A DNA stretch of 55,248 nucleotides, counting the filler, from Ionaspis alba (taxonomy: Eukaryota): assembly GCA_964255285.1 (NCBI GenBank). It is 2 parts of 2 records of this genome, joined end to end, with 100 filler letters (N's around TTAATTAATTAA, not from the genome) between each part and the next. Parts side by side here need not be neighbours in the genome. Positions count along the whole stretch, not along the records: positions 27,719 to 55,248 come from CAXUUL010000137.1; 1 more part is not named here. The stretch is one strand, 5' to 3'. The notes beneath the pieces are model-generated. The model saw only the letters and a list, made by a program, of their open reading frames with translations. It was not told the DNA's origin and did no database searches. Below, piece after piece: positions 2,297 through 50,513 of this stretch; within the stretch, counting starts at the first letter, position 1, and every line of letters begins with the position of its first letter. The position numbers and the translations under genes are program-made.

Positions 2297-3838
2297 CTAG
2301 TTGGTAGTTCCTGCAGTTGTTTCCCACAACAGGAACTGGCTTGGAGGAGACTCATCCTTGTCATCTTGAATCTCCGGACTGATGCTTTGTGCTCCAGTCT
2401 CAGTGGTCAACATTTCGTTACTTTTGCCTGGCACTCGTAACATGGTGAGTCCACTCAAGCCATCTATAGCTTCCGTCATGAAAGAATCGCTGGATACTAC
2501 AAACCAAGCCTCTCCGTCCAGCCTCGTTGCACGTCTGAGAACTTGAGATCAGTGAGGGAGTCATATACGGATTGAGCACTTCGAGACCTACAAACAGTGT
2601 ACAACTAAGTCTCTGACGAAGCCTGCCGGCAGGAATCCTCGCCAGCTTAACTCAACTAGCATTTTCGTCGAGGCTTCTTCGCTGCCGGGCAATTGATAAC
2701 GACAAAGATAAGGCTCAGCTGCGTCTCCTGGTCGGATACGAGGGCTCCGTAATCTAACCAGGTCCACCCATTCTAGGAAATCTATGGCGTCTTCCCCGAA
2801 GTCGCTGTTGTTGGTAGGCGACAGTATGTGAGGTACAAGTGCTTTGAAGCAGTCAATTGAAGGTAAGCATTCCGTCACATACGGATGATATTGAGCGATC
2901 GGTGGTCTACTTTTGCTCGCCGGAAGGTCGTAGCTGTTGTCAGAGCCTCGCGCTAGCTGAATGGCTTCCTGAGACATACCACTAGTATGGTCCGCTGTTT
3001 CAAGAACACTTTGAGCAAAATCGTGGAATAACCAAGTTACGGAATCGGTCAGTACGTGCTCGAAAGCCCACCAGATTCGTTCAAAGCCCTTTCGGCAGCG
3101 GTTCATGGACTGGGCCCTTAAATCGATCTCAACAACTGGTAGACCAATTCAGTATCCGGCAATCCTCTTCGTTCATCTTTTCAAAGCTCAGAATTCATAC
3201 TGTATCTCGTCTTGATGTGTTTTCTGCCGCCATCTCTAGTAGCCTTTCCAAGCAAGCCAGTACGTTCGTACGTTTCCTTTGGGAGCTCAAGTCTAAGGAT
3301 GCCTGAGTATCAGTCAGTATCTGACCCGCTTTGAAGCACGAGATCTTGTTTCCTACCTCCGTGTAGCAGGTACTGCCTGTCAACACCAGGACGACCCTCT
3401 GACAGCATGGCAATATTTCCTAGAAAGCATCACTACAACACAGGCTTAAGAACCCTCAAGGAATTGCGGTTTGAGCACCAGAGGATGCCCATACCCGATC
3501 TTATATAGACACTCAGAAAGTCTGTCTCGAGTAGAGCAAGAAGAGGCATGACAACCCGCGAGTATCGGATAGTAGGGAGATGTTCCTCAACATTCCGCCA
3601 GACATTAAGATAGAGCTCTTCGGGCATGAGAAGACCAATCTTAGAAACCTTATTAGCTGTCTACTGAGGTGTAGAGGCTAAGAGAAGTTGGTACCCTATG
3701 TGAGAACATCTGGCTCAAGGCTGCCGAGAATGGCTTCTTCGTAGACGGAAGTTGGGCAAGGTTGATTGCAGTTGGAAGTTGCCCGTATGTCACATAGCAT
3801 TTTTCAACGGGCGACGGGTCATTTTTGACCTTGAACAT
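2297..3838 (-). CDS. RPP40: Ribonuclease P/MRP 40 kDa subunit (Rpp40 family), multi-exon
   Basis: Series of minus-strand exon ORFs (3653-3838, 3433-3627, 2588-3106, 2297-2479) with fungal Rpp40-like segments: EKCYVTYGQLP, GFERIWWAFEHVL, FLEWVDLVRLRSPRI..EPYLCRY, WRGFLPAGFV. Confidence 0.75.
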
Positions 3839-4106
3839 GTTTGTGAAGCAGGGTTAGGTATTTTCTAATCAGAAACGGTCTCTAATGACGGTTTTCCTTG
3901 AGTATGGATCGCTGACTATGACCATAAATGCGGCCTGTGCCTCGGTTTTTCGAAAATTTCCAAAGCTCAAAGAGCTTTCTGACCGGATACAGCAAATGGT
4001 TCGGAGGTCAGATTTTCAGGTCTAGAATCCAGTCCCACCCCAGATGACGGCAATCATGAACTTGACTCATAAATCCCAGTAGAGTCATTCCAGCGCCAGT
4101 TCAAGA

Positions 4107-6734
4107 ATGCTTGGCTCGAAATTCCTCCCAACAACTACGCGTCCATTACAAATATGTGAGTGGACGCTTGCGTCTTACTTACTGCATTTACTACCTCTAA
4201 CTGCTATTAAAGTAGCTGGAAGAAGACTTTCTTCGAAGTTGCATTTAATGAGCATGACTTCTTCGATCAAACCCCCCTATGCTTCACAAAACCCTGTGGA
4301 AATATCCACGTTAATCAAAAGCTTGGAGGTCAGAACCAAGAATCTCAAAGGCAAACATAAGGAAAGAGGGGATTTTACTTGTAGAAAAGCCACATTTTCT
4401 GTTGCCAACAGCCATGGCATCACCGTCGACTCGTGGCGCTTCCAAGACTGGGATTATAAGCGTGACGATCTTCCTACGTACGCTCGTGGCCTCTTCACGT
4501 ACCGAACGAGTACAGGCACACCTGAAATTGCCGCGAGAGGGTATGACAAATTTTTCAATGTTGGCGAAGTCAACAATACTCAATGGCGCAACGTTGAGAC
4601 CGGCACAAGAGGTCCCTACGAGCTCAGTGTCAAGGAGAATGGTTGCATAATCTTTCTGTCGGGCCTCGAAGGTGATATTCTGCTTGTTTGTAGCAAGCAT
4701 TCGATTGGGGCGAGGTCAGACATCGATGTCAGCCACGCCCAAGCCGGGGAACGCTGGATAGAGAAGCATCTTGCCACGGTTGGAAAGACAAAACAAGAGC
4801 TGGCCAGAGAGCTCCGAGCCAGGAATGTAACGGCCGTAGCCGAGCTTTGCGACGATTCTTTCGAAGAGCATGTTCTAGCTTACGGGGAGAAGTCGGCCGG
4901 TCTCTATCTGCATGGCATGAATCTAAATCTGCCGCAATTTGCCACCTATCCTGGTCCTTTGGTTCATGAATTCGCCGATGCTTGGGGGCTCAGGAAGGCT
5001 GAATTTCTGGTGAAGGACGACATAGAAACAACCAAGGCATTCCTTGATGGTTGTGCGGAGACGGGATCATGGAATGGTAAAGATACAGAAGGCTTTGTCA
5101 TCCGATGTCAGAGGAGTACGGGCGGCAAGACTGGACCTTACGTGGACTGGTTCTTCAAGTACAAGTTCGAGGAGCCGTATTTGATGTACCGACAGTGGAG
5201 GGAGGCGACCAAAGCCGTTATAGCAGGTAAGGTCCCTCGGTACAAGAAACACAAAAACATCACAGAAGAGTATCTCCTTTACGCCAGACGTCAACTTGCA
5301 CTTAATCCCGCCCTGGGCAAAGCTTACAACGCCAACCATGGGATCATCGACATGAGGGATGGTTTCCTCAAGGAACGTGGATTGAAGGGCTCGGACATTA
5401 TCCGTCAAGAATATGCGGGAGACGGAAAAGCACCGAACGATGTAATCAGCCATGTCCTCCTGGTCCCGGTTGCTACGATTGGATGCGGGAAGACTACTGT
5501 CGCGGTAGCATTAACCAAACTCTTCCGTTGGGGACATGTGCAGAACGACAACATTACGGGTCAAAAGGGACGGCCAAAACAATTTGCTATTCAGCTTTGC
5601 AATAGTCTGGCTAAGTATCCTGTCGTCATCGCTGATCGAAACAATCATCAGAAGCGGGAGAGAAAGCAGATTATCGAGGATATCAATCATGTTGTACCGA
5701 ATGTCCGCTTCGTTGCTCTCCACTACGTTCATACTCCGAAAGCGGAGATGGTGCCCAGCATACGGGAAGCCACGCAGCGAAGGGTACTAGAGAGGGGTGA
5801 CAACCATCAGACTATTCAGGCGGGCACGAAGTCACGAGCAGAGATCATCAAGATCATGGATGGCTTTCTTGATCGATTCGAGCCTATAGACGTGTGCTCT
5901 GAGCCTGACAGTGGCTTCGACGAGATCATTGATCTTGATGTTGTGGAGTCGTCTCGCCATAACCTGGAGCTCGTCGTCAACGCACTTCGCTCGGCATTTC
6001 CAAAGCTCATCCCTGAGCCACCGTCTCCGCAAGAGCTCGATGACGCAATCTCTGCAGCGCTGGTTGAGTACAAGCCTGAGATCAAACACGACTTGAGCTT
6101 TCAATCGAATTCGAAGCACAAGAGCGCTAAAGATCCGAAGGAAAATTGGAGGCAAAGGATACAGGAACAAGAGACTAAGGACCTCAGATTGGAGCCTAAA
6201 GCTGCGGAGATCGAATATTTCGCCCTCAAGCTCCCGGCTTCCCAAGTCAACTCTTTTGTGGACTCGACGTTTGCCTCCCTTGACCCATCCCTCGCTAGAT
6301 TCTACCGCCAGCTCCAGCAAACCCGGCGTGTACAGCCCAATTTCCACATTACGCTCATGCATCGTGCCTCCGTACCGCAGAATCCCGAACTCTGGGCTCG
6401 ACTCTTATCTCTTCGCGACTCAGCTACAGAGCTATCTGACGGAACATCCGATCCCTTACTTGGCAAATGCCGAGTGCAGCTCGAGCAGATTGTTTGGGAC
6501 AACAGGGTTATGTGTGTGGTAGCAAGGATATTGGATGAGGGCTGGGAGAGCGCGAATAAGACACCTCATGTTACGATTGGAACGGCGAGCACCTCGATCA
6601 AACCTAAGGAAAGTAATGAGTTATTGGACAAATGGGTCACTGAGGGCCCAACTGATGAGAATGGGGTTCAAGAGGTTGCGGTTATGCATCGCGGAGAAAT
6701 CTGGGCCGAGGCAAGGGCAGTGATGCGGAGATGA
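4107..6734 (+). CDS. TRL1: Fungal trifunctional tRNA ligase (ligase, polynucleotide kinase, cyclic phosphodiesterase); intronless; alternative starts at 4248/4254
   Basis: 875-aa ORF with RGYDKFFN, ligase motif I KENG, EGFVIRC, FFKYKFEEPYLMYRQWRE, P-loop GCGKT, IADRNNHQ and two CPDase HxT motifs (HITL, HVTI). Confidence 0.97.
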   Translation: MLGSKFLPTTTRPLQICEWTLASYLLHLLPLTAIKVAGRRLSSKLHLMSMTSSIKPPYASQNPVEISTLIKSLEVRTKNLKGKHKERGDFTCRKATFSVANSHGITVDSWRFQDWDYKRDDLPTYARGLFTYRTSTGTPEIAARGYDKFFNVGEVNNTQWRNVETGTRGPYELSVKENGCIIFLSGLEGDILLVCSKHSIGARSDIDVSHAQAGERWIEKHLATVGKTKQELARELRARNVTAVAELCDDSFEEHVLAYGEKSAGLYLHGMNLNLPQFATYPGPLVHEFADAWGLRKAEFLVKDDIETTKAFLDGCAETGSWNGKDTEGFVIRCQRSTGGKTGPYVDWFFKYKFEEPYLMYRQWREATKAVIAGKVPRYKKHKNITEEYLLYARRQLALNPALGKAYNANHGIIDMRDGFLKERGLKGSDIIRQEYAGDGKAPNDVISHVLLVPVATIGCGKTTVAVALTKLFRWGHVQNDNITGQKGRPKQFAIQLCNSLAKYPVVIADRNNHQKRERKQIIEDINHVVPNVRFVALHYVHTPKAEMVPSIREATQRRVLERGDNHQTIQAGTKSRAEIIKIMDGFLDRFEPIDVCSEPDSGFDEIIDLDVVESSRHNLELVVNALRSAFPKLIPEPPSPQELDDAISAALVEYKPEIKHDLSFQSNSKHKSAKDPKENWRQRIQEQETKDLRLEPKAAEIEYFALKLPASQVNSFVDSTFASLDPSLARFYRQLQQTRRVQPNFHITLMHRASVPQNPELWARLLSLRDSATELSDGTSDPLLGKCRVQLEQIVWDNRVMCVVARILDEGWESANKTPHVTIGTASTSIKPKESNELLDKWVTEGPTDENGVQEVAVMHRGEIWAEARAVMRR

Positions 6735-7442
6735 AGGAGTGCAGTTAGATTCGTGCTTGGCCATGATCAAGGCATTGGGAAGCATGCTCTGCTTACTTAC
6801 CTGCGCAGTTGCTTGATGTACTACCACTATAAATGGGCCTCTGTGGGGTGGTTTTAGAAAAGCACTGTGTTGGGAGGTGGATCGAGGGCGGAATGAAAGT
6901 CATTATCAATTGGAGACGGCAAGGTTTGATCACCTCCCATGAGTGGCTACCTGTATATGAGGGAGGTACTTCAAAGGTCGCGGCGGGAGCAAACGAGTTT
7001 GCAATCCTAAAACCACCAGATATGGGACTTAAATCCACCACGATATAGCTATCTATCTGCATCGAGAATTTCCATTGAAAGAGGCAGAACCGTCAATATA
7101 CTCTACAAATATCTATTTTTAACGTATTATAACGATTGTAAAAAGGTAATGATTCTGTGTATCGTCTGGCTTAGACCCAACCATGACGCTGGTATTTGAG
7201 TTCACGCAGAACTTGCAGGAATCATGTGTCAAAGTCCAGATAATGGTGTATTACAAATTTATGCAGTATCTACTCCGAATACGCATCAGAAGGGTCATAA
7301 ATACTGGCTACTTCAACGCTGTAGGCAACGAGAGTTGGCGATGATATCTATTCGAGATTTCCAAAGCTGTCGAAAGGCACTACCGAGCTATTCAGCCCTA
7401 TAGGCCAAAACTCCCAGTGCACACCCAGCAAAGGCATTGATA

Positions 7443-8281
7443 ATGGGTCACGATGAGCAAAGCGAAGAGCGCGAGGTGCTCGACTCTATCTTTCCAGATG
7501 AGATCACGGGTTTCTATAATTTCTCAAGTCCATAGTGTAATCTCACTGACTTAGAGGCTAGACATTTCCGACACATCATACCGCTTATCGATTACGCTAG
7601 AGGTTTCTCAACAAGATGACGATGCCGCTCCCCGTAGGTAATCTCCAGCATCTATATCACATTCCGGAATTGTCCCATAGCCAATTTGATTCGCAGCTTC
7701 CCGCAGTCAACTCTGACACTTTTATAGCATCATTGCTCCTCACAGTCACCTATCCCCCAACTTATCCCGATGTCCCTCCGCTACTGGACCTTTCGGCTCC
7801 CCCAAACACGTCCAAATATGCCCATCTGGACGTTCAATCTGACAAGGAGAGGCTTCTTTCTGCGTTAGAACCTACTATCGACGAGAATATCGGCATGGCC
7901 ATGATTTTCACCCTTGTCAGCACACTGAAAGATCTGGCCGAAACTCTGGTTGCCGAGAGGCAAGCAGCACTGCAAGGCTTGAAAGAAATTGAAGCTGCTA
8001 AAGCAGAAGAAGAGGAAAACAGAAAATTCCACGGGACTGCGGTGACACGGGAGAGCTTTCTGCAGTGGAGAGACAAGTTCCGTCAGGAGATGCAACAGGC
8101 AGAGCAAAGGGAGAAGGAGGAGAAAGAGGCCGAGGATAAAAGAAAGAGAAACAAGGTCGAGGAAAGGTTGTCGGGGAGGCAGCTCTGGGAGCGGGGTATG
8201 GTTGCCAAAATCGATGAAGATGAAGACGATGATGGTCAAGACGCATTGAAGGACATCGAAAAGTTGGAGATGACGCATTGA
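7443..8281 (+). CDS. GIR2: RWD-domain protein (Gir2/RWDD1), 3 exons
   Basis: MGHDEQSEEREVLDSIFPDEIT at 7443; RWD motif YPPTYPDVPP; ENIGMAMIFTLV; FHGTAVTRESFLQW; LSGRQLWE. Confidence 0.9.
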
Positions 8282-8964
8282 ATGGCTCAATAGACTACAT
8301 ATCATGGCAGCATCGGGTCTTCGTGCCCTCTGTGTACTCCCCCATCATACACAGACTTGTGTGTAGTCCACATCGCCTTACACGGGCATGGCATGGGCAG
8401 TCTATAGAGCCCGTTCCCAATTGGAATGAGAGCTTTGAGGCGGGGGAACCCGAACTGTCCAGTTTACTTGATTGTGTGATTTTAACCGCATACTTCAAGG
8501 GTCAAGGGTATAGACAACAAGTATGGATGTTGTAGCCTATTTCCCATTGGAACAAACTTCCTAAACCACTCTAGACGTTAGTGGCTGGTTTTTTTGCAGC
8601 ACATCAACGTGGATTGAGACAAGATTCGATCTGAATGAGCCAACATGGACAGTGTAAACCATCGAAAGGAGTTAATGAGAAAGACAATTCTAGCCACGAT
8701 ATGGCAGTGCAGGTAGTTGAGGCAACTATTGAAAGTGAGACGGATCATGAAAATCTTCCTTGAGTAGTTAGCATCTAGACTTCGGCCGAACGAAGTTTGT
8801 GTATAGGTGCCCAAGCACGTCGATTTGATCTTATAGAGGCCGGTAAGATGGGGCAGGATAGCTCTCCTGATATTATTCGGAATTAAAAAACCAGGGAATG
8901 ATGACACAACCAGCGCTAGAAGAGTCTGCGATAAATGCATCATTCCAAACTTTGCATACCAAGC

Positions 8965-9933
8965 TCACTCAGGCGTTTTGTGCTTCATAGCATCTTTCCC
9001 CTCCTCAGCAAGGACCTTCTCCATCTCCACAATCCCATACATCCTCCTGGCAACCTCAGTGTTCTTCTCCTGACTTCCCGTGAGCCTTGCCGAAACCTCC
9101 AAGCGAGAGTCTGCAACCGTCGCGGCCCAGGTTCCTTCTTCGAGCCCATATTGCTGGCCGTTTATCGGTATGCCGCACACTTCGAACAAAATCCGATCCC
9201 ATTCATCCTCGCTCTGCGCGATGATCAATTGGCTTTCGAGTGAGTACAGCAGATCGAAGCGCCTTTCCCGCTGTGAGATTTTATTTCTAATTACACGGCT
9301 AAGGAACGGAGACTGCGGTTTCTTGAAGCGTAGATGGGCAATTCCGTTGGCATTCACGAGCTTGGGTATGTGCCGCCTACCACTGATGGAGATATGAGGT
9401 CGTGATAGGGCTTCAGGAGTGGCTGGTCGAGGCCATACGATAGGCCCTTTGAGCTGGTATTGCGATCTTCCCGTCGTGGGATTGAGTGTCAGAGCGTTTG
9501 CTTGGGGAGGTCTGGTAGGAGGCTCTGAGATCCAATACTTGAGGATTCGATCTGAGAAGTGCGAAAGTGCTGCCGGAGAGCGGGAAGTAAGATCCTTAAC
9601 AGTTTTGAGAGCCTGTATCTTCAGTTGAGTAACCATGAAGCGCGACACCCACAGGCAGCGAGTCTCTTACCTCATAGCCAAGCTCTAGGGATAGGACAAC
9701 ATCGCGTGGACTGCAAAGCTTGATGTTGTCCCGGAATCGAGACCTAACAAGCTGCTCCACAAAAGTCTGTGCCTCCGGCACGATCGGTGTTCGAGCGCTT
9801 TGCTTCAATAGAGCCCGGTAAAGACTAAGGCCTGGAACAGTCAGTATAACGACTGATGTAGACTCCCGCTAAGATCCAACTGACATGCGAAACGATGAAT
9901 TCCTGACTTCCCCGGGATGAAATGTCGTGGCAT
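8965..9933 (-). CDS. LYR-motif protein, probably mitochondrial; 3 exons
   Basis: Spliced start MPRHFIPGKSGIHRFACLSLYRALLKQ (LYR) ..VRSRFRDN; C-terminal exon with GRRHIPKLVNANGIAHLRFKKPQSPFLSRVIR. Confidence 0.7.
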
Positions 9934-48343: not shown

Positions 48344-48992
48344 GGAGTTGCGGTAGGGGTCGTGGGGTTGAGCTTTGTTATGTCCAGGAAGCGCGTCGAC
48401 GTTTTACTTCGCTTCACCTGGCTCGGGGATTGATATATGAGAATGGGTATGTATATGGATGGGGTGATGACGGGGATCTGGATGACATGACTGTAAGATA
48501 CGAGGGCACTGGTCTTTTCTCTCTTGCCTTTGTTTATACCATGCATCATAAGCTTCGTTTAATACTGGCATAATGAGGGTATACATGGGCATGGTAGAGA
48601 GCTTTGCATACATAGACGCTGGGCTGCATTATCAGAGCATTGTATACTATCTGTAACATTTAGAGCGATAGCTTTATCGAGGTCTTCAATTTCCTTTTTC
48701 GGATTGCATGCAAATGAATCAATTGAATAGACATTTTGAGATGCTCACGCTTCGACGTACGAAAATGTATATTCGTTTCTATTCCTCCTACGAAAAAGAA
48801 GCACAACACTACTGGCTCCCCACTCCTTGCGCCCCATTTCCTCGCGATCTATGCACCACAAGCTCCAAACCCAAGATACTGGTACACGGAAGAGACAAAG
48901 GAAAAAGCGCTCAGATCGGAACTCCAGAACAAATGTTCACATCCCCTCTTTCCCTTGCCCATCCCACTCCAGATCTACCATCCGGGCACCGC

Positions 48993-50297
48993 TTAGATCC
49001 CGAGATACCGCTTCAAGTTCTCGAGGACGCCCTCATCAGCCTCAGCATCGGCCTCAGCATCAGCCTCAGCAAAAGCATCTGCCTCCGGCTCGGCATCTCT
49101 CTCAACGAGCCCCTCGAAGTCGAAATCACGCTCATACAATTCCGCCTCCGCTTCAGCTTCAGCCTCAGCCTCTGCATCCGCCTCGGCCTCGGCCTCAGCC
49201 TCCCGGGCATAGAACTCATGAAGTTCACGGGTATAAAGCTCGGCCTCAGCTTCCGCCTCAGCTTCCGCCTCCGCCTCCGCGAGTGCCTCAGCCTCAGCCC
49301 AAGCCTCGGCCTCCGCCTCGGCCTCACGGGCCTCAAGATCGCGGATGTACATCTGGACATCGCGCTCAGCGAGGTCGCGGGCGCTGAGGCCATAGTCGCT
49401 GCGGCGCTGGAAGTTGCCGACGGGGGCGGCATCAAGAATGTCGCGAACGACGTGCTCGAAGTGAGGGTTGCGCGCCACGAGGGTGTGGAGGTCGCGCTCA
49501 AATTGCATGACGCTGTCACGGGCGACTTTCTTGCCGGGTTTGGGCTTCGGCGCGTTGGACTTGTCGCCAGGGAGCTTGTTGCCGAAGGGAGTTTTGTCAG
49601 TGGCGGGAGTCTTGCCGGTGCCGGGGACTTTGTCGCCAGTGGGGTCGGTGGACGCCGGTTCCTTATCCGTGGGGGTATCGGTCGAGGGCCGCTCGCTGCC
49701 GAAAGCGGAGCCGGTGGGCTTCCTGTTGGGGTTGGTGGGCTTCTTGGGAGAGCCGGGCTTTCCGGTTTTGGGCGAGCCGGGCGTCTTAGCACCGTGCTTT
49801 TCGCCGTGCTGCTTGTGGCCATCCTTTCCGTGCTTAGATCCGTGTTGGCCGTGTTGGCCATGTTTACCATGTTTGCTATGCTTTCCATGCTTTCCATGCT
49901 TGCCGTGCTGAGACCCATGTTGCTTATGGCCATGCTTGCCGTGCTTTCCACTGGAGTGCTTTGACTTGTTCTTGTCCTTCCCACCAGCTTTCTCATGTTT
50001 GAGTTCGCCAGTCATTTTCTTGTTCTGCGCTTGTAGTTGATCGTTCTGCTTGTCCTCGGCCTTAATCTGGGACTGGCTTTGGTCGAATTGTTGCTGGAGT
50101 TCACCATTCTCTTTCTTCTCCTCCTTGTATAGAGTCTCCCAATTGTCAGTTTTACCTGCAGGAGCTTTGTCTTTTGGTGCAGCTGGAGCTTTTGCGGCAG
50201 CATAAGGATCACGCATGTAGATGCCATTGCCGTAGCTTTGGGCCGAGGCGATAGAGGCAACGGTGGCCAGGAGGGCGAGGTCTTTGATTTGAACCAT
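48993..50297 (-). CDS. Secreted repetitive propeptide: signal peptide, His/Gly/Lys repeats, Pro/Lys/Thr linker, LxxR sites with (E/D)A spacers; intronless CDS
   Basis: 434-aa ORF; hydrophobic N-terminus ending ASA|Q; HGK/HGQ repeats at aa 114-169; three X-Ala/X-Pro runs at aa 325-420; C/G-ending codon preference; upstream TATA box. Confidence 0.88.
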   Translation of the reverse strand: MVQIKDLALLATVASIASAQSYGNGIYMRDPYAAAKAPAAPKDKAPAGKTDNWETLYKEEKKENGELQQQFDQSQSQIKAEDKQNDQLQAQNKKMTGELKHEKAGGKDKNKSKHSSGKHGKHGHKQHGSQHGKHGKHGKHSKHGKHGQHGQHGSKHGKDGHKQHGEKHGAKTPGSPKTGKPGSPKKPTNPNRKPTGSAFGSERPSTDTPTDKEPASTDPTGDKVPGTGKTPATDKTPFGNKLPGDKSNAPKPKPGKKVARDSVMQFERDLHTLVARNPHFEHVVRDILDAAPVGNFQRRSDYGLSARDLAERDVQMYIRDLEAREAEAEAEAWAEAEALAEAEAEAEAEAEAELYTRELHEFYAREAEAEAEADAEAEAEAEAEAELYERDFDFEGLVERDAEPEADAFAEADAEADAEADEGVLENLKRYLGI

Positions 50298-50505: not shown

Positions 50506-50513
50506 TTTATATA
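50506..50513 (-). promoter_or_regulatory. Candidate TATA box (TATATAAA) of the secreted repeat-protein gene
   Basis: tttatata on the + strand, about 210 bp upstream of the ATG at 50297. Confidence 0.55.

Follow-up and report, generated by a model that had tools for sequence, protein, structure and literature searches.

A predicted secreted precursor from Ionaspis alba with an array of single-arginine Kex2-type sites and in-register X-Ala/X-Pro runs

In promelittin-type precursors of insects and frog skin, a dipeptidyl peptidase removes an acidic pro-segment of X-Ala or X-Pro dipeptides (XA/XP) that precedes an amphipathic helix at the C-terminus; the products typically carry positive charge and in many cases are amidated. 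In fungi, alpha-pheromone precursors (MF-alpha), which are processed by Kex2, Kex1 and Ste13, have a signal peptide, basic sites and in-register XA/XP dipeptides and release their peptides by trimming (PMC6339444, in part; sources so marked are cited for the available portion of their text). Kex2-processed repeat proteins (KEPs; Le Marquer 2019, PMC6339444, in part; Umemura 2020, PMC7329392, in part) are secreted and cut by Kex2 into many pieces, some of them with a STE13 signature. K2PP effectors and AFP/bubble proteins have monobasic LxxR sites and a disordered pro-region whose removal frees the active part (PMC8528282; 10.1101/2020.05.27.120113 and PMC13525654, both in part). Amphipathic peptides that are active at a surface or membrane are freed by Kex2 from Ustilago Rep1 and Candida Ece1/candidalysin (PMC8528282; PMC9769878, in part). 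Here we describe P0001, the 434-amino acid (aa) protein encoded by the open reading frame (ORF) at 48993..50297 (minus strand, as are all features of the gene given below) in a 55,248-nucleotide stretch of the Ionaspis alba genome (GCA_964255285.1; hereafter the window). Processing of this precursor by Kex2 and a dipeptidyl peptidase is well supported by its sequence, and it is very probable that cleavage occurs at aliphatic-x-x-Arg sites.

P0001 starts with a signal-peptide-like segment (aa 1-19, 50241..50297; A-S-A before Q20) that by eye fits a signal peptide without a transmembrane segment and is conserved in related proteins, Q20 being invariant. A short pro-piece follows (50175..50240), in which IYMR, ending at aa 29, precedes six XA/XP dipeptides (aa 30-41). 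The remainder consists of a basic domain (aa 42-260, 49518..50174), an acidic tail (aa 261-420, 49038..49517) and a terminal 14-mer, DEGVLENLKRYLGI (48996..49037). The tail has 52 Asp/Glu and 13 Arg residues and no Lys, and is built as an array of single-Arg sites with one RR and two conserved blocks, GLSARD and ELHEFYAR. Three runs in it are in register behind an Arg: 14 XA dipeptides behind LEAR (aa 325-352, 49242..49325), 10 behind FYAR (aa 366-385, 49143..49202) and 10 XA/XP dipeptides behind LVER (aa 401-420, 49038..49097).

The preliminary description of this locus had listed these runs, including the one behind the signal peptide, together with a set of Arg motifs, and all were found in the ORF, the runs with exactly the positions and lengths claimed. 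Among the 15 Arg residues of the last 175 aa are the same seven exact LxxR sites that it had reported, and MYIR, FYAR, one RR (aa 298-299) and one KR (aa 429-430) were also located. Shuffled sequences contained 1.19 LxxR sites on average and reached seven in 2 of 100,000 cases; when the XA runs were removed, the mean was 1.79 and 31 of 100,000 shuffles reached seven. The wording that nearly every Arg ends a hydrophobic-x-x-R site was too strong. Ten of the 15 have L/I/V/M/F/Y at P4, which was equalled in 16 of 100,000 shuffles (715 of 100,000 without the XA runs), and the other five lie in KVAR, QFER, HVVR, NFQR and NLKR. The codons of the XA runs are synonymously mixed, the first run using all four Ala codons, which suggests that the runs are old. 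The 6-nt tandem arrays that underlie them match at only 70-83%.

Searches with the tail gave four weak matches, one of which, P0004 (E 4e-3), is also alike at its N-terminus and its end. A profile of P0001 and P0004 gave 10 matches, including P0006-P0010 (E 1e-82 to 7e-8), a wider profile gave 16, adding P0015 and P0016, and a cluster look-up gave three more near-duplicates. The resulting family has 12 sequences from about five lineages. Its members have in common a signal peptide with Q20, a GL..RD block, a unit of the form [DE]L[HQ][ED]..[AT]R and a terminal Gly. The sole informatively named member is MMC13_008507, a hypothetical protein of Lambiella insularis (Lecanoromycetes, Xylographaceae), which belongs to a lichen-forming group. 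None of the 12 members had a Pfam family over the cut-off; below it, P0001 had a weak coiled-coil match and one member a faint match to TMEM119. A metagenome scan with the family alignment gave 141 pattern matches, of which none was confirmed. The tail had no usable match in the ESM Atlas, where P0009 gave only leads of 0.80 or less. In the PDB the family profile gave three sequence matches (E 0.18-0.64) and the last 22 aa gave none. Synteny was followed through the vezatin-like neighbour of P0001; of four loci, three had the downstream flank and none had a family gene, and these loci seem to be from distant fungi and are uninformative for close relatives.

Statistics on the family used eight members, with the near-duplicates P0015, P0023, P0024 and P0025 omitted, and were compared with 11 other retrieved proteins, from which P0002 (dibasic and apparently unrelated) and the near-duplicates P0019 and P0026 were left out. 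A run was counted if it was acidic and had at least three XA/XP dipeptides. All 33 runs in the eight members start directly behind an Arg (3.7 expected), as do all 48 in the other proteins (4.6 expected). Ala or Pro occupies even positions 168 times and odd positions 28 times. This register speaks against slippage or helix formation, since neither explains it. The Arg residues of the tails (n = 105) have an aliphatic P4 in 100 cases, an acidic P1' in 94 and both in 90, whereas those of the N-terminal domains (n = 75) have an aliphatic P4 in three cases, an acidic P1' in seven and both in none; the depletion of aliphatic P4 in the N-terminal domains has p=0.017. Lys is distributed the opposite way, with 215 in the N-terminal domains and four in the tails. 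In six of the eight members the boundary between basic and acidic parts, taken from cumulative charge, is a KR or RR. The preliminary description had proposed looking in homologues for a constant register and terminal peptide alongside spacers of varying length, and this is the pattern that the family displays, with a terminal helix motif in 12 of 12 members.

Kex2 prefers an aliphatic P4 and is tolerant of variable P2 residues (PMC8528282), and it favors acidic residues at P1'/P2' (PMC2515848, in part). Effector pro-domains with an LxxR junction are cleaved in vitro (10.1101/2020.05.27.120113 and PMC12141369, both in part), and cleavage behind a single Arg has been observed in Pichia (PMC9769878, in part). 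Because these works document aliphatic P4, acidic P1' and single-Arg cleavage, the site grammar of the family fits Kex2. The genome encodes a Kex2 orthologue on contig C49 (E 1.6e-155 to yeast Kex2) and, on contig C25, one type II (membrane-type) dipeptidyl peptidase IV of the Ste13/DapB kind with an N-terminal hydrophobic segment and a GWSYG motif. In addition, the same Arg-XA/XP pro-segment is found directly N-terminal to Cys-rich or Lys-rich cargo in P0020-P0022 and in proteins of contigs C57, C667 and C38. Register, site grammar and enzyme genes all support the processing logic put forward earlier, Kex2 and then a dipeptidyl aminopeptidase. A gene near Kex2 on contig C49 (L014, ~6049-6322) contains an N gap and a short tandem repeat that reads as EHLSH units on one of the strands.

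P0001 nevertheless differs from each of the described systems. The promelittin type is not fungal and has no counterpart to the big basic domain, and the terminal peptide of the family is neutral or acidic. Compared with alpha-pheromone precursors, P0001 uses single Arg instead of KR, lacks a repeated core, has far longer spacers and contains both the basic domain and a helical terminal peptide. Its one RR and one KR flank no core repeats, although it does have the in-register XA/XP dipeptides behind a basic site that are typical of pheromone spacers. None of the 12 members matched the MF_alpha/pheromone families of Pfam at E<=0.05, and there were only weak leads, to mating factor alpha-1 in the PDB (E 0.18) and to an MF-alpha cluster in the Atlas (0.79). 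The earlier judgement that this is not a standard alpha-pheromone gene was borne out, as a separate gene on contig C100 (L008, 1216-1964) encodes a conventional alpha-pheromone-like precursor with repeated WCYR/WCWR cores, KR sites and XA/XP spacers.

KEP surveys cut at dibasic sites only and need at least three repeated cores (PMC6339444 and PMC7329392, both in part). As defined there, a KEP gives at least four KR/RR (or KK) fragments with at least three similar motifs, or has at least three tandem repeats of at least 8 aa between dibasic sites. P0001 gives three fragments at KR/RR, and its four KK sites are in the non-repetitive N-terminal domain. By fragment count alone, leaving repeats aside, four of the eight members give at least four KR/RR fragments; P2 is basic at only 3 of the 105 tail Arg residues. 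Lichens go unmentioned in the main text of PMC6339444, and the set of PMC7329392 (in part) takes in Umbilicaria pustulata. In K2PP effectors and AFP a single pro-domain stands at the N-terminus and the product is folded and usually rich in Cys, and the incompletely processed large form of AFP is less active (PMC13525654, in part). In the P0001 family the pro-region is mainly C-terminal, with ~13-21 Arg sites and XA/XP runs, and P0001 itself is Cys-free. K2PPs are recognized by LxxR, KR or RR in the protein's first half, behind a disordered pro-segment (10.1101/2020.05.27.120113, in part); the IYMR of P0001 is an aliphatic-x-x-R but not a strict LxxR site, and all eight members have an equivalent, an aliphatic-aromatic-x-Arg site within the first 50 aa. 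In AlphaFold models built on shallow alignments, only isolated helices and no folded domain of the K2PP kind were seen. Finally, Rep1, compared by description, lacks a STE13 signature (PMC6339444, in part) and has many amphipathic repeats, whereas P0001 has one short C-terminal helix.

The probable main product of the precursor, judged from the protein sequence, is the 219-aa Lys/His-rich N-terminal domain, which the preliminary description had overlooked. It has 44 Lys, 3 Arg and 18 His residues (pI 10.0) and is made up of a coiled coil (aa 52-104, 49986..50144), a His/Gly/Lys repeat (aa 115-168, 49794..49955) and a Pro/Lys/Thr-rich stretch. A processing site flanks it at each end and the cleavage motif is absent inside, and we consider it likely that the domain is released largely intact. 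AlphaFold gave models with a predicted local distance difference test score (pLDDT) of 57-59 and predicted template modeling scores (pTM) of 0.25 and 0.21 from shallow alignments (57.5 and 0.25 for P0001), showing isolated helices and no globular fold. The best element was the helix at aa 52-104, with a pLDDT of ~90 at its center; the first XA run was drawn as helix at ~80-87. Two copies of aa 46-110 were modeled as a parallel in-register dimer with a score of 0.52, against 0.00 for the best of three controls, and runs agreed in at least 97% of contacts with pLDDT of at least 81. Among microbial proteins the mark used for dimers captured 21 of 30 solved pairs and none of 23 single chains; the corresponding figures for eukaryotes were 17 of 29 and 0 of 30. 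The His/Gly/Lys repeat, with 16 His and 12 Lys in 54 aa, is absent from the relatives of P0001; a similar repeat occurs in a protein of contig C38, and it is a possible metal- or polyanion-binding stretch.

The second candidate product is the terminal peptide (1.6 kDa, predicted helix at aa 421-432). The motif h-h-x-x-h-[KR]-x-h-h-G-h, a pattern drawn from the family itself, closes all 12 members, is missing from the 14 further proteins that were retrieved and turns up a single time across all six frames of the window (110,492 residues). The peptide is never more than 9 residues from the C-terminus. An XA/XP run of 4-10 dipeptides abuts it in P0001, P0009 and P0010, and in the remaining members a further Arg-Asp site leads up to it. 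Hydrophobic positions shared by the family are helically spaced, with a peak at 100 degrees that was reached by 423 of 50,000 shuffles for nine positions and 1666 of 50,000 for 11. The hydrophobic moment of the P0001 11-mer is unremarkable (0.53, reached by 3152 of 20,000 shuffles), and AlphaFold drew the terminal helix weakly (pLDDT ~63). The net charge, -1 in P0001 and 0 in each of the 11 others, speaks against a typical cationic antimicrobial peptide; neither the net positive charge nor the strong amphipathicity of such peptides was found, and the antimicrobial activity suggested earlier has weak support at best. The shorter form DEGVLENL, also proposed earlier, would need a cut at the terminal KR. 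This KR is replaced by RS in P0009 and P0010, two of the eight members, and the residues beyond it are as well conserved as those in front of it, which favors an intact helix. On balance, we lean slightly towards a terminal helix that is released whole and active.

The joint reading that we favor, with somewhat better than even confidence, is a secreted, alpha-factor-like prepro-protein that is cut at single Arg residues. Signal peptidase would take off aa 1-19. Kex2 would then cut behind aliphatic-x-x-Arg and before Asp/Glu, at one site close to the N-terminus and at around a dozen in the acidic tail, and a Ste13/DapB-type peptidase would trim the XA/XP runs from each fresh N-terminus. Two pieces would survive, the Lys-rich domain (~aa 42-260), starting with its coiled-coil dimer, and the uncut terminal 14-mer, a near-neutral amphipathic helix with a Gly cap at its end. 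The tail would be a disposable acidic pro-region that masks both products and keeps them soluble in the secretory pathway, and most of its internal fragments would be debris. The layout, site grammar, register, family and both enzyme genes are observed; we infer cleavage, products and role. The most likely role, though held at less than even odds, would be action on the surface or matrix outside the hypha, as opposed to receptor signaling, in which case the polycation would bind anionic wall or matrix polymers and the small helix would be surfactant-like or membrane-seeking.

Two other explanations accept that the precursor is processed and differ in what they take to be functional. In one, the basic N-terminal domain is the sole functional product and the terminal helix is a sorting or tethering signal that holds the precursor near membrane-bound Kex2 and Ste13 and is then discarded, by analogy with C-terminal amphipathic membrane-targeting helices. 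The position of the peptide close to the C-terminus, its neutral or acidic character in 12 of 12 members and the avoidance of the cleavage motif by the N-terminal domain all agree with this idea, as does the fact that the protein of contig C327 and P0005, P0011, P0013 and P0014 carry the same tail without the terminal peptide. However, a trimmed run or an Arg-Asp site abuts the peptide, and a tether would need no trimmed N-terminus; moreover, the N-terminal domain is the least conserved part and in P0009 is only 53 aa long and neutral. We regard this explanation as unlikely. Still less probable is a multi-peptide precursor, in which the small acidic pieces named in the preliminary description (ELYTR, ELHEFYAR, ELYER and DFDFEGLVER) signal and the terminal peptide, perhaps KR-cut, is antimicrobial or hormonal. 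The [DE]L[HQ][ED]..[AT]R unit is kept in seven of seven aligned members, the tails span only 174-206 aa against an N-terminal domain of variable length, and Le Marquer et al. propose hormone release by KEPs with a STE13 signature (PMC6339444, in part). On the other hand, the pentapeptides ELYTR and ELYER largely coincide with positions P5-P1 of the site that follows and are seen again in unrelated precursors, some of which end without a terminal peptide while others carry different cargo. The Arg-XA/XP segment is a general module, so these pentapeptides are better taken for the half of the following site that is recognized than for products. Identical repeated cores are absent, the terminal KR is not constant, and most membrane-lytic antimicrobial peptides differ from a net charge of -1 or 0.

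Two further explanations remain. The protein could be an uncleaved, low-complexity polyampholyte of the wall or matrix, with EA runs that arose by slippage and form a long acidic helix and LxxRD units that act as helix caps. AlphaFold indeed draws the runs as a single long helix (aa 306-390), the 6-nt tandem arrays are real, and units such as LTERDI may fit a helix N-cap pattern. Neither a helix nor slippage explains why a run starts directly behind Arg in 81 of 81 cases, and the exclusion of Lys from the tail and the in-register X-Pro are likewise unexplained; in other proteins the same segment sits N-terminal to Cys-rich cargo. We consider this improbable, to about the same degree as the multi-peptide precursor or slightly more so. 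Least credible of all, and very nearly negligible, is a dikaritin-type RiPP precursor (RiPPs are peptides made by ribosomes and modified after translation), in which Tyr units such as DLYER and ELYAR are cyclized by UstYa/DUF3328 enzymes. The P3 residue of the sites is often Tyr and the genome has 15 UstYa matches, but none of the 15 is on the window contigs C136/C137 or the paralogue contigs, the neighbors of P0001 are housekeeping genes, and Ste13 trimming is not predicted for such RiPPs (PMC6339444, in part).

Several observations weigh against the processed two-product precursor that we favor. Several P2 residues (Ala, Glu) are non-canonical for Kex2. In most members MVKR is a good P4-P1 Kex2 site, and the helix may therefore be cut. 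Amphipathicity is modest, the averaged profile being reached by 4866 of 50,000 shuffles. No member diverges further than P0001: compared directly with P0004 it has an E value of only 4e-3, P0007 as query recovers it from the genome at no better than E 2.6, its aa 1-115 as query matched none of 124 candidates, and it lacks the best-conserved family block, ILARDP..LTERDI. The membership of P0001 rests on the common order of short motifs. The N-terminal domain is conserved neither in sequence nor in length (53-304 aa). The eight members represent about five independent lineages and the proteins were retrieved partly through their XA/XP runs; given this relatedness, the run-based retrieval and the derivation of the terminal motif from the family, the counts overstate independence. 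Eukaryotic pairs without an older solved relative reach the dimer mark in only one of seven cases, and the result for the coil may thus reflect likeness to textbook coiled coils. A paralogue on contig C5 (L009, 2943-5393; 816 aa) has a similar signal and tail (hhalign 97.5%), a long basic domain and an N gap in the tail, but it ends differently and has no Gly-capped helix. Stoichiometric charge neutralization was considered and rejected: the charges of tail and N-terminal domain are uncorrelated (rho -0.10, p 0.8) and the N-terminal domain of P0009 is neutral, so that strict neutralization is unsupported.

The Arg-XA/XP segment is not confined to this family. In this genome it is also present on contigs C5, C327, C38, C57 and C735 and twice on C667, and at least eight genes use the same grammar. 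It ends the protein in the C327 product and in P0005, P0011, P0013 and P0014. One of seven DNA-pattern matches, on contig C427, was discarded as a chance match within an unrelated frame. On C667 (L035, ~7000-9100) two adjacent genes each encode an Arg/XA-XP pro-piece followed by a small Cys-rich cargo and are candidates for antimicrobial-type peptides. Secreted-type proteins with the same site grammar are encoded on C327 (L010, ~3085-3873), C38 (L011, 3460-4750), C57 (L019, 1333-1845) and C735 (L016, 4344-4523, truncated where the contig stops); their cargo is Gly/Lys/Pro-rich, Lys/Asp/His/Cys-rich or Lys/Glu-rich. Among the retrieved proteins, P0020-P0022 form a family in which a long Arg/XA-XP pro-region is joined to a cationic C-terminal peptide of ~55 aa with four Cys residues, and P0017-P0019 form another, with a basic N-terminal domain, repeated DLY.R units and, between sites, an internal block that is conserved; P0020 and P0017 are without Pfam matches.

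The ORF of P0001 is one open frame, with a GC content at third codon positions of 0.65, and lies between a convergent vezatin-like gene on one side and PCNA on the other; the genes around it (vezatin-like, PCNA, Utp12) are housekeeping genes. A TATA-like element, TATATAA (50507..50513, a motif match only), is located 216 nt 5' of the ATG, and the leader is pyrimidine-rich. On the basis of codon composition, the element and the leader the ORF appears to be a real gene. A contig of sequencing run X1, which may come from the source sample, is identical across the ORF and run X2 has the same sequence at low depth, with no variants seen in the ORF among the contigs of these two runs. Between the convergent genes, at 48652-48809, a second X1 contig at ~44% of depth has nine substitutions and a deletion of one nucleotide.

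Since the enzymes and the two motifs were known already, the mechanism is not new. We found no account in the open-access literature of the P0001 family or of monobasic XA/XP arrays; what we did not find described there is a single-Arg array with long XA/XP runs used as a disposable C-terminal pro-region, and a family with a conserved terminal helix. Since published KEP pipelines cut at dibasic sites only, the secreted peptides of such fungi may be under-counted and their mature proteins mis-assigned. For this family, precise termini can be predicted. It also offers a peptide that may act in the matrix or at the surface, from a group in which little is known of what glues the thallus together at the molecular level. 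It is a speculative and rather unlikely possibility that lichen-type ascomycetes use the monobasic code in a wide range of secreted proteins and that this family ships a charge-masked kit, a dimeric polycation plus a neutral surfactant helix. If true, there would be a monobasic-code peptidome invisible to dibasic-site KEP surveys, and the kit would be unmasked only once the acidic tail has been broken up late in the secretory pathway, to cement or waterproof the hyphal matrix of the thallus or to act on the surface of the algal partner.

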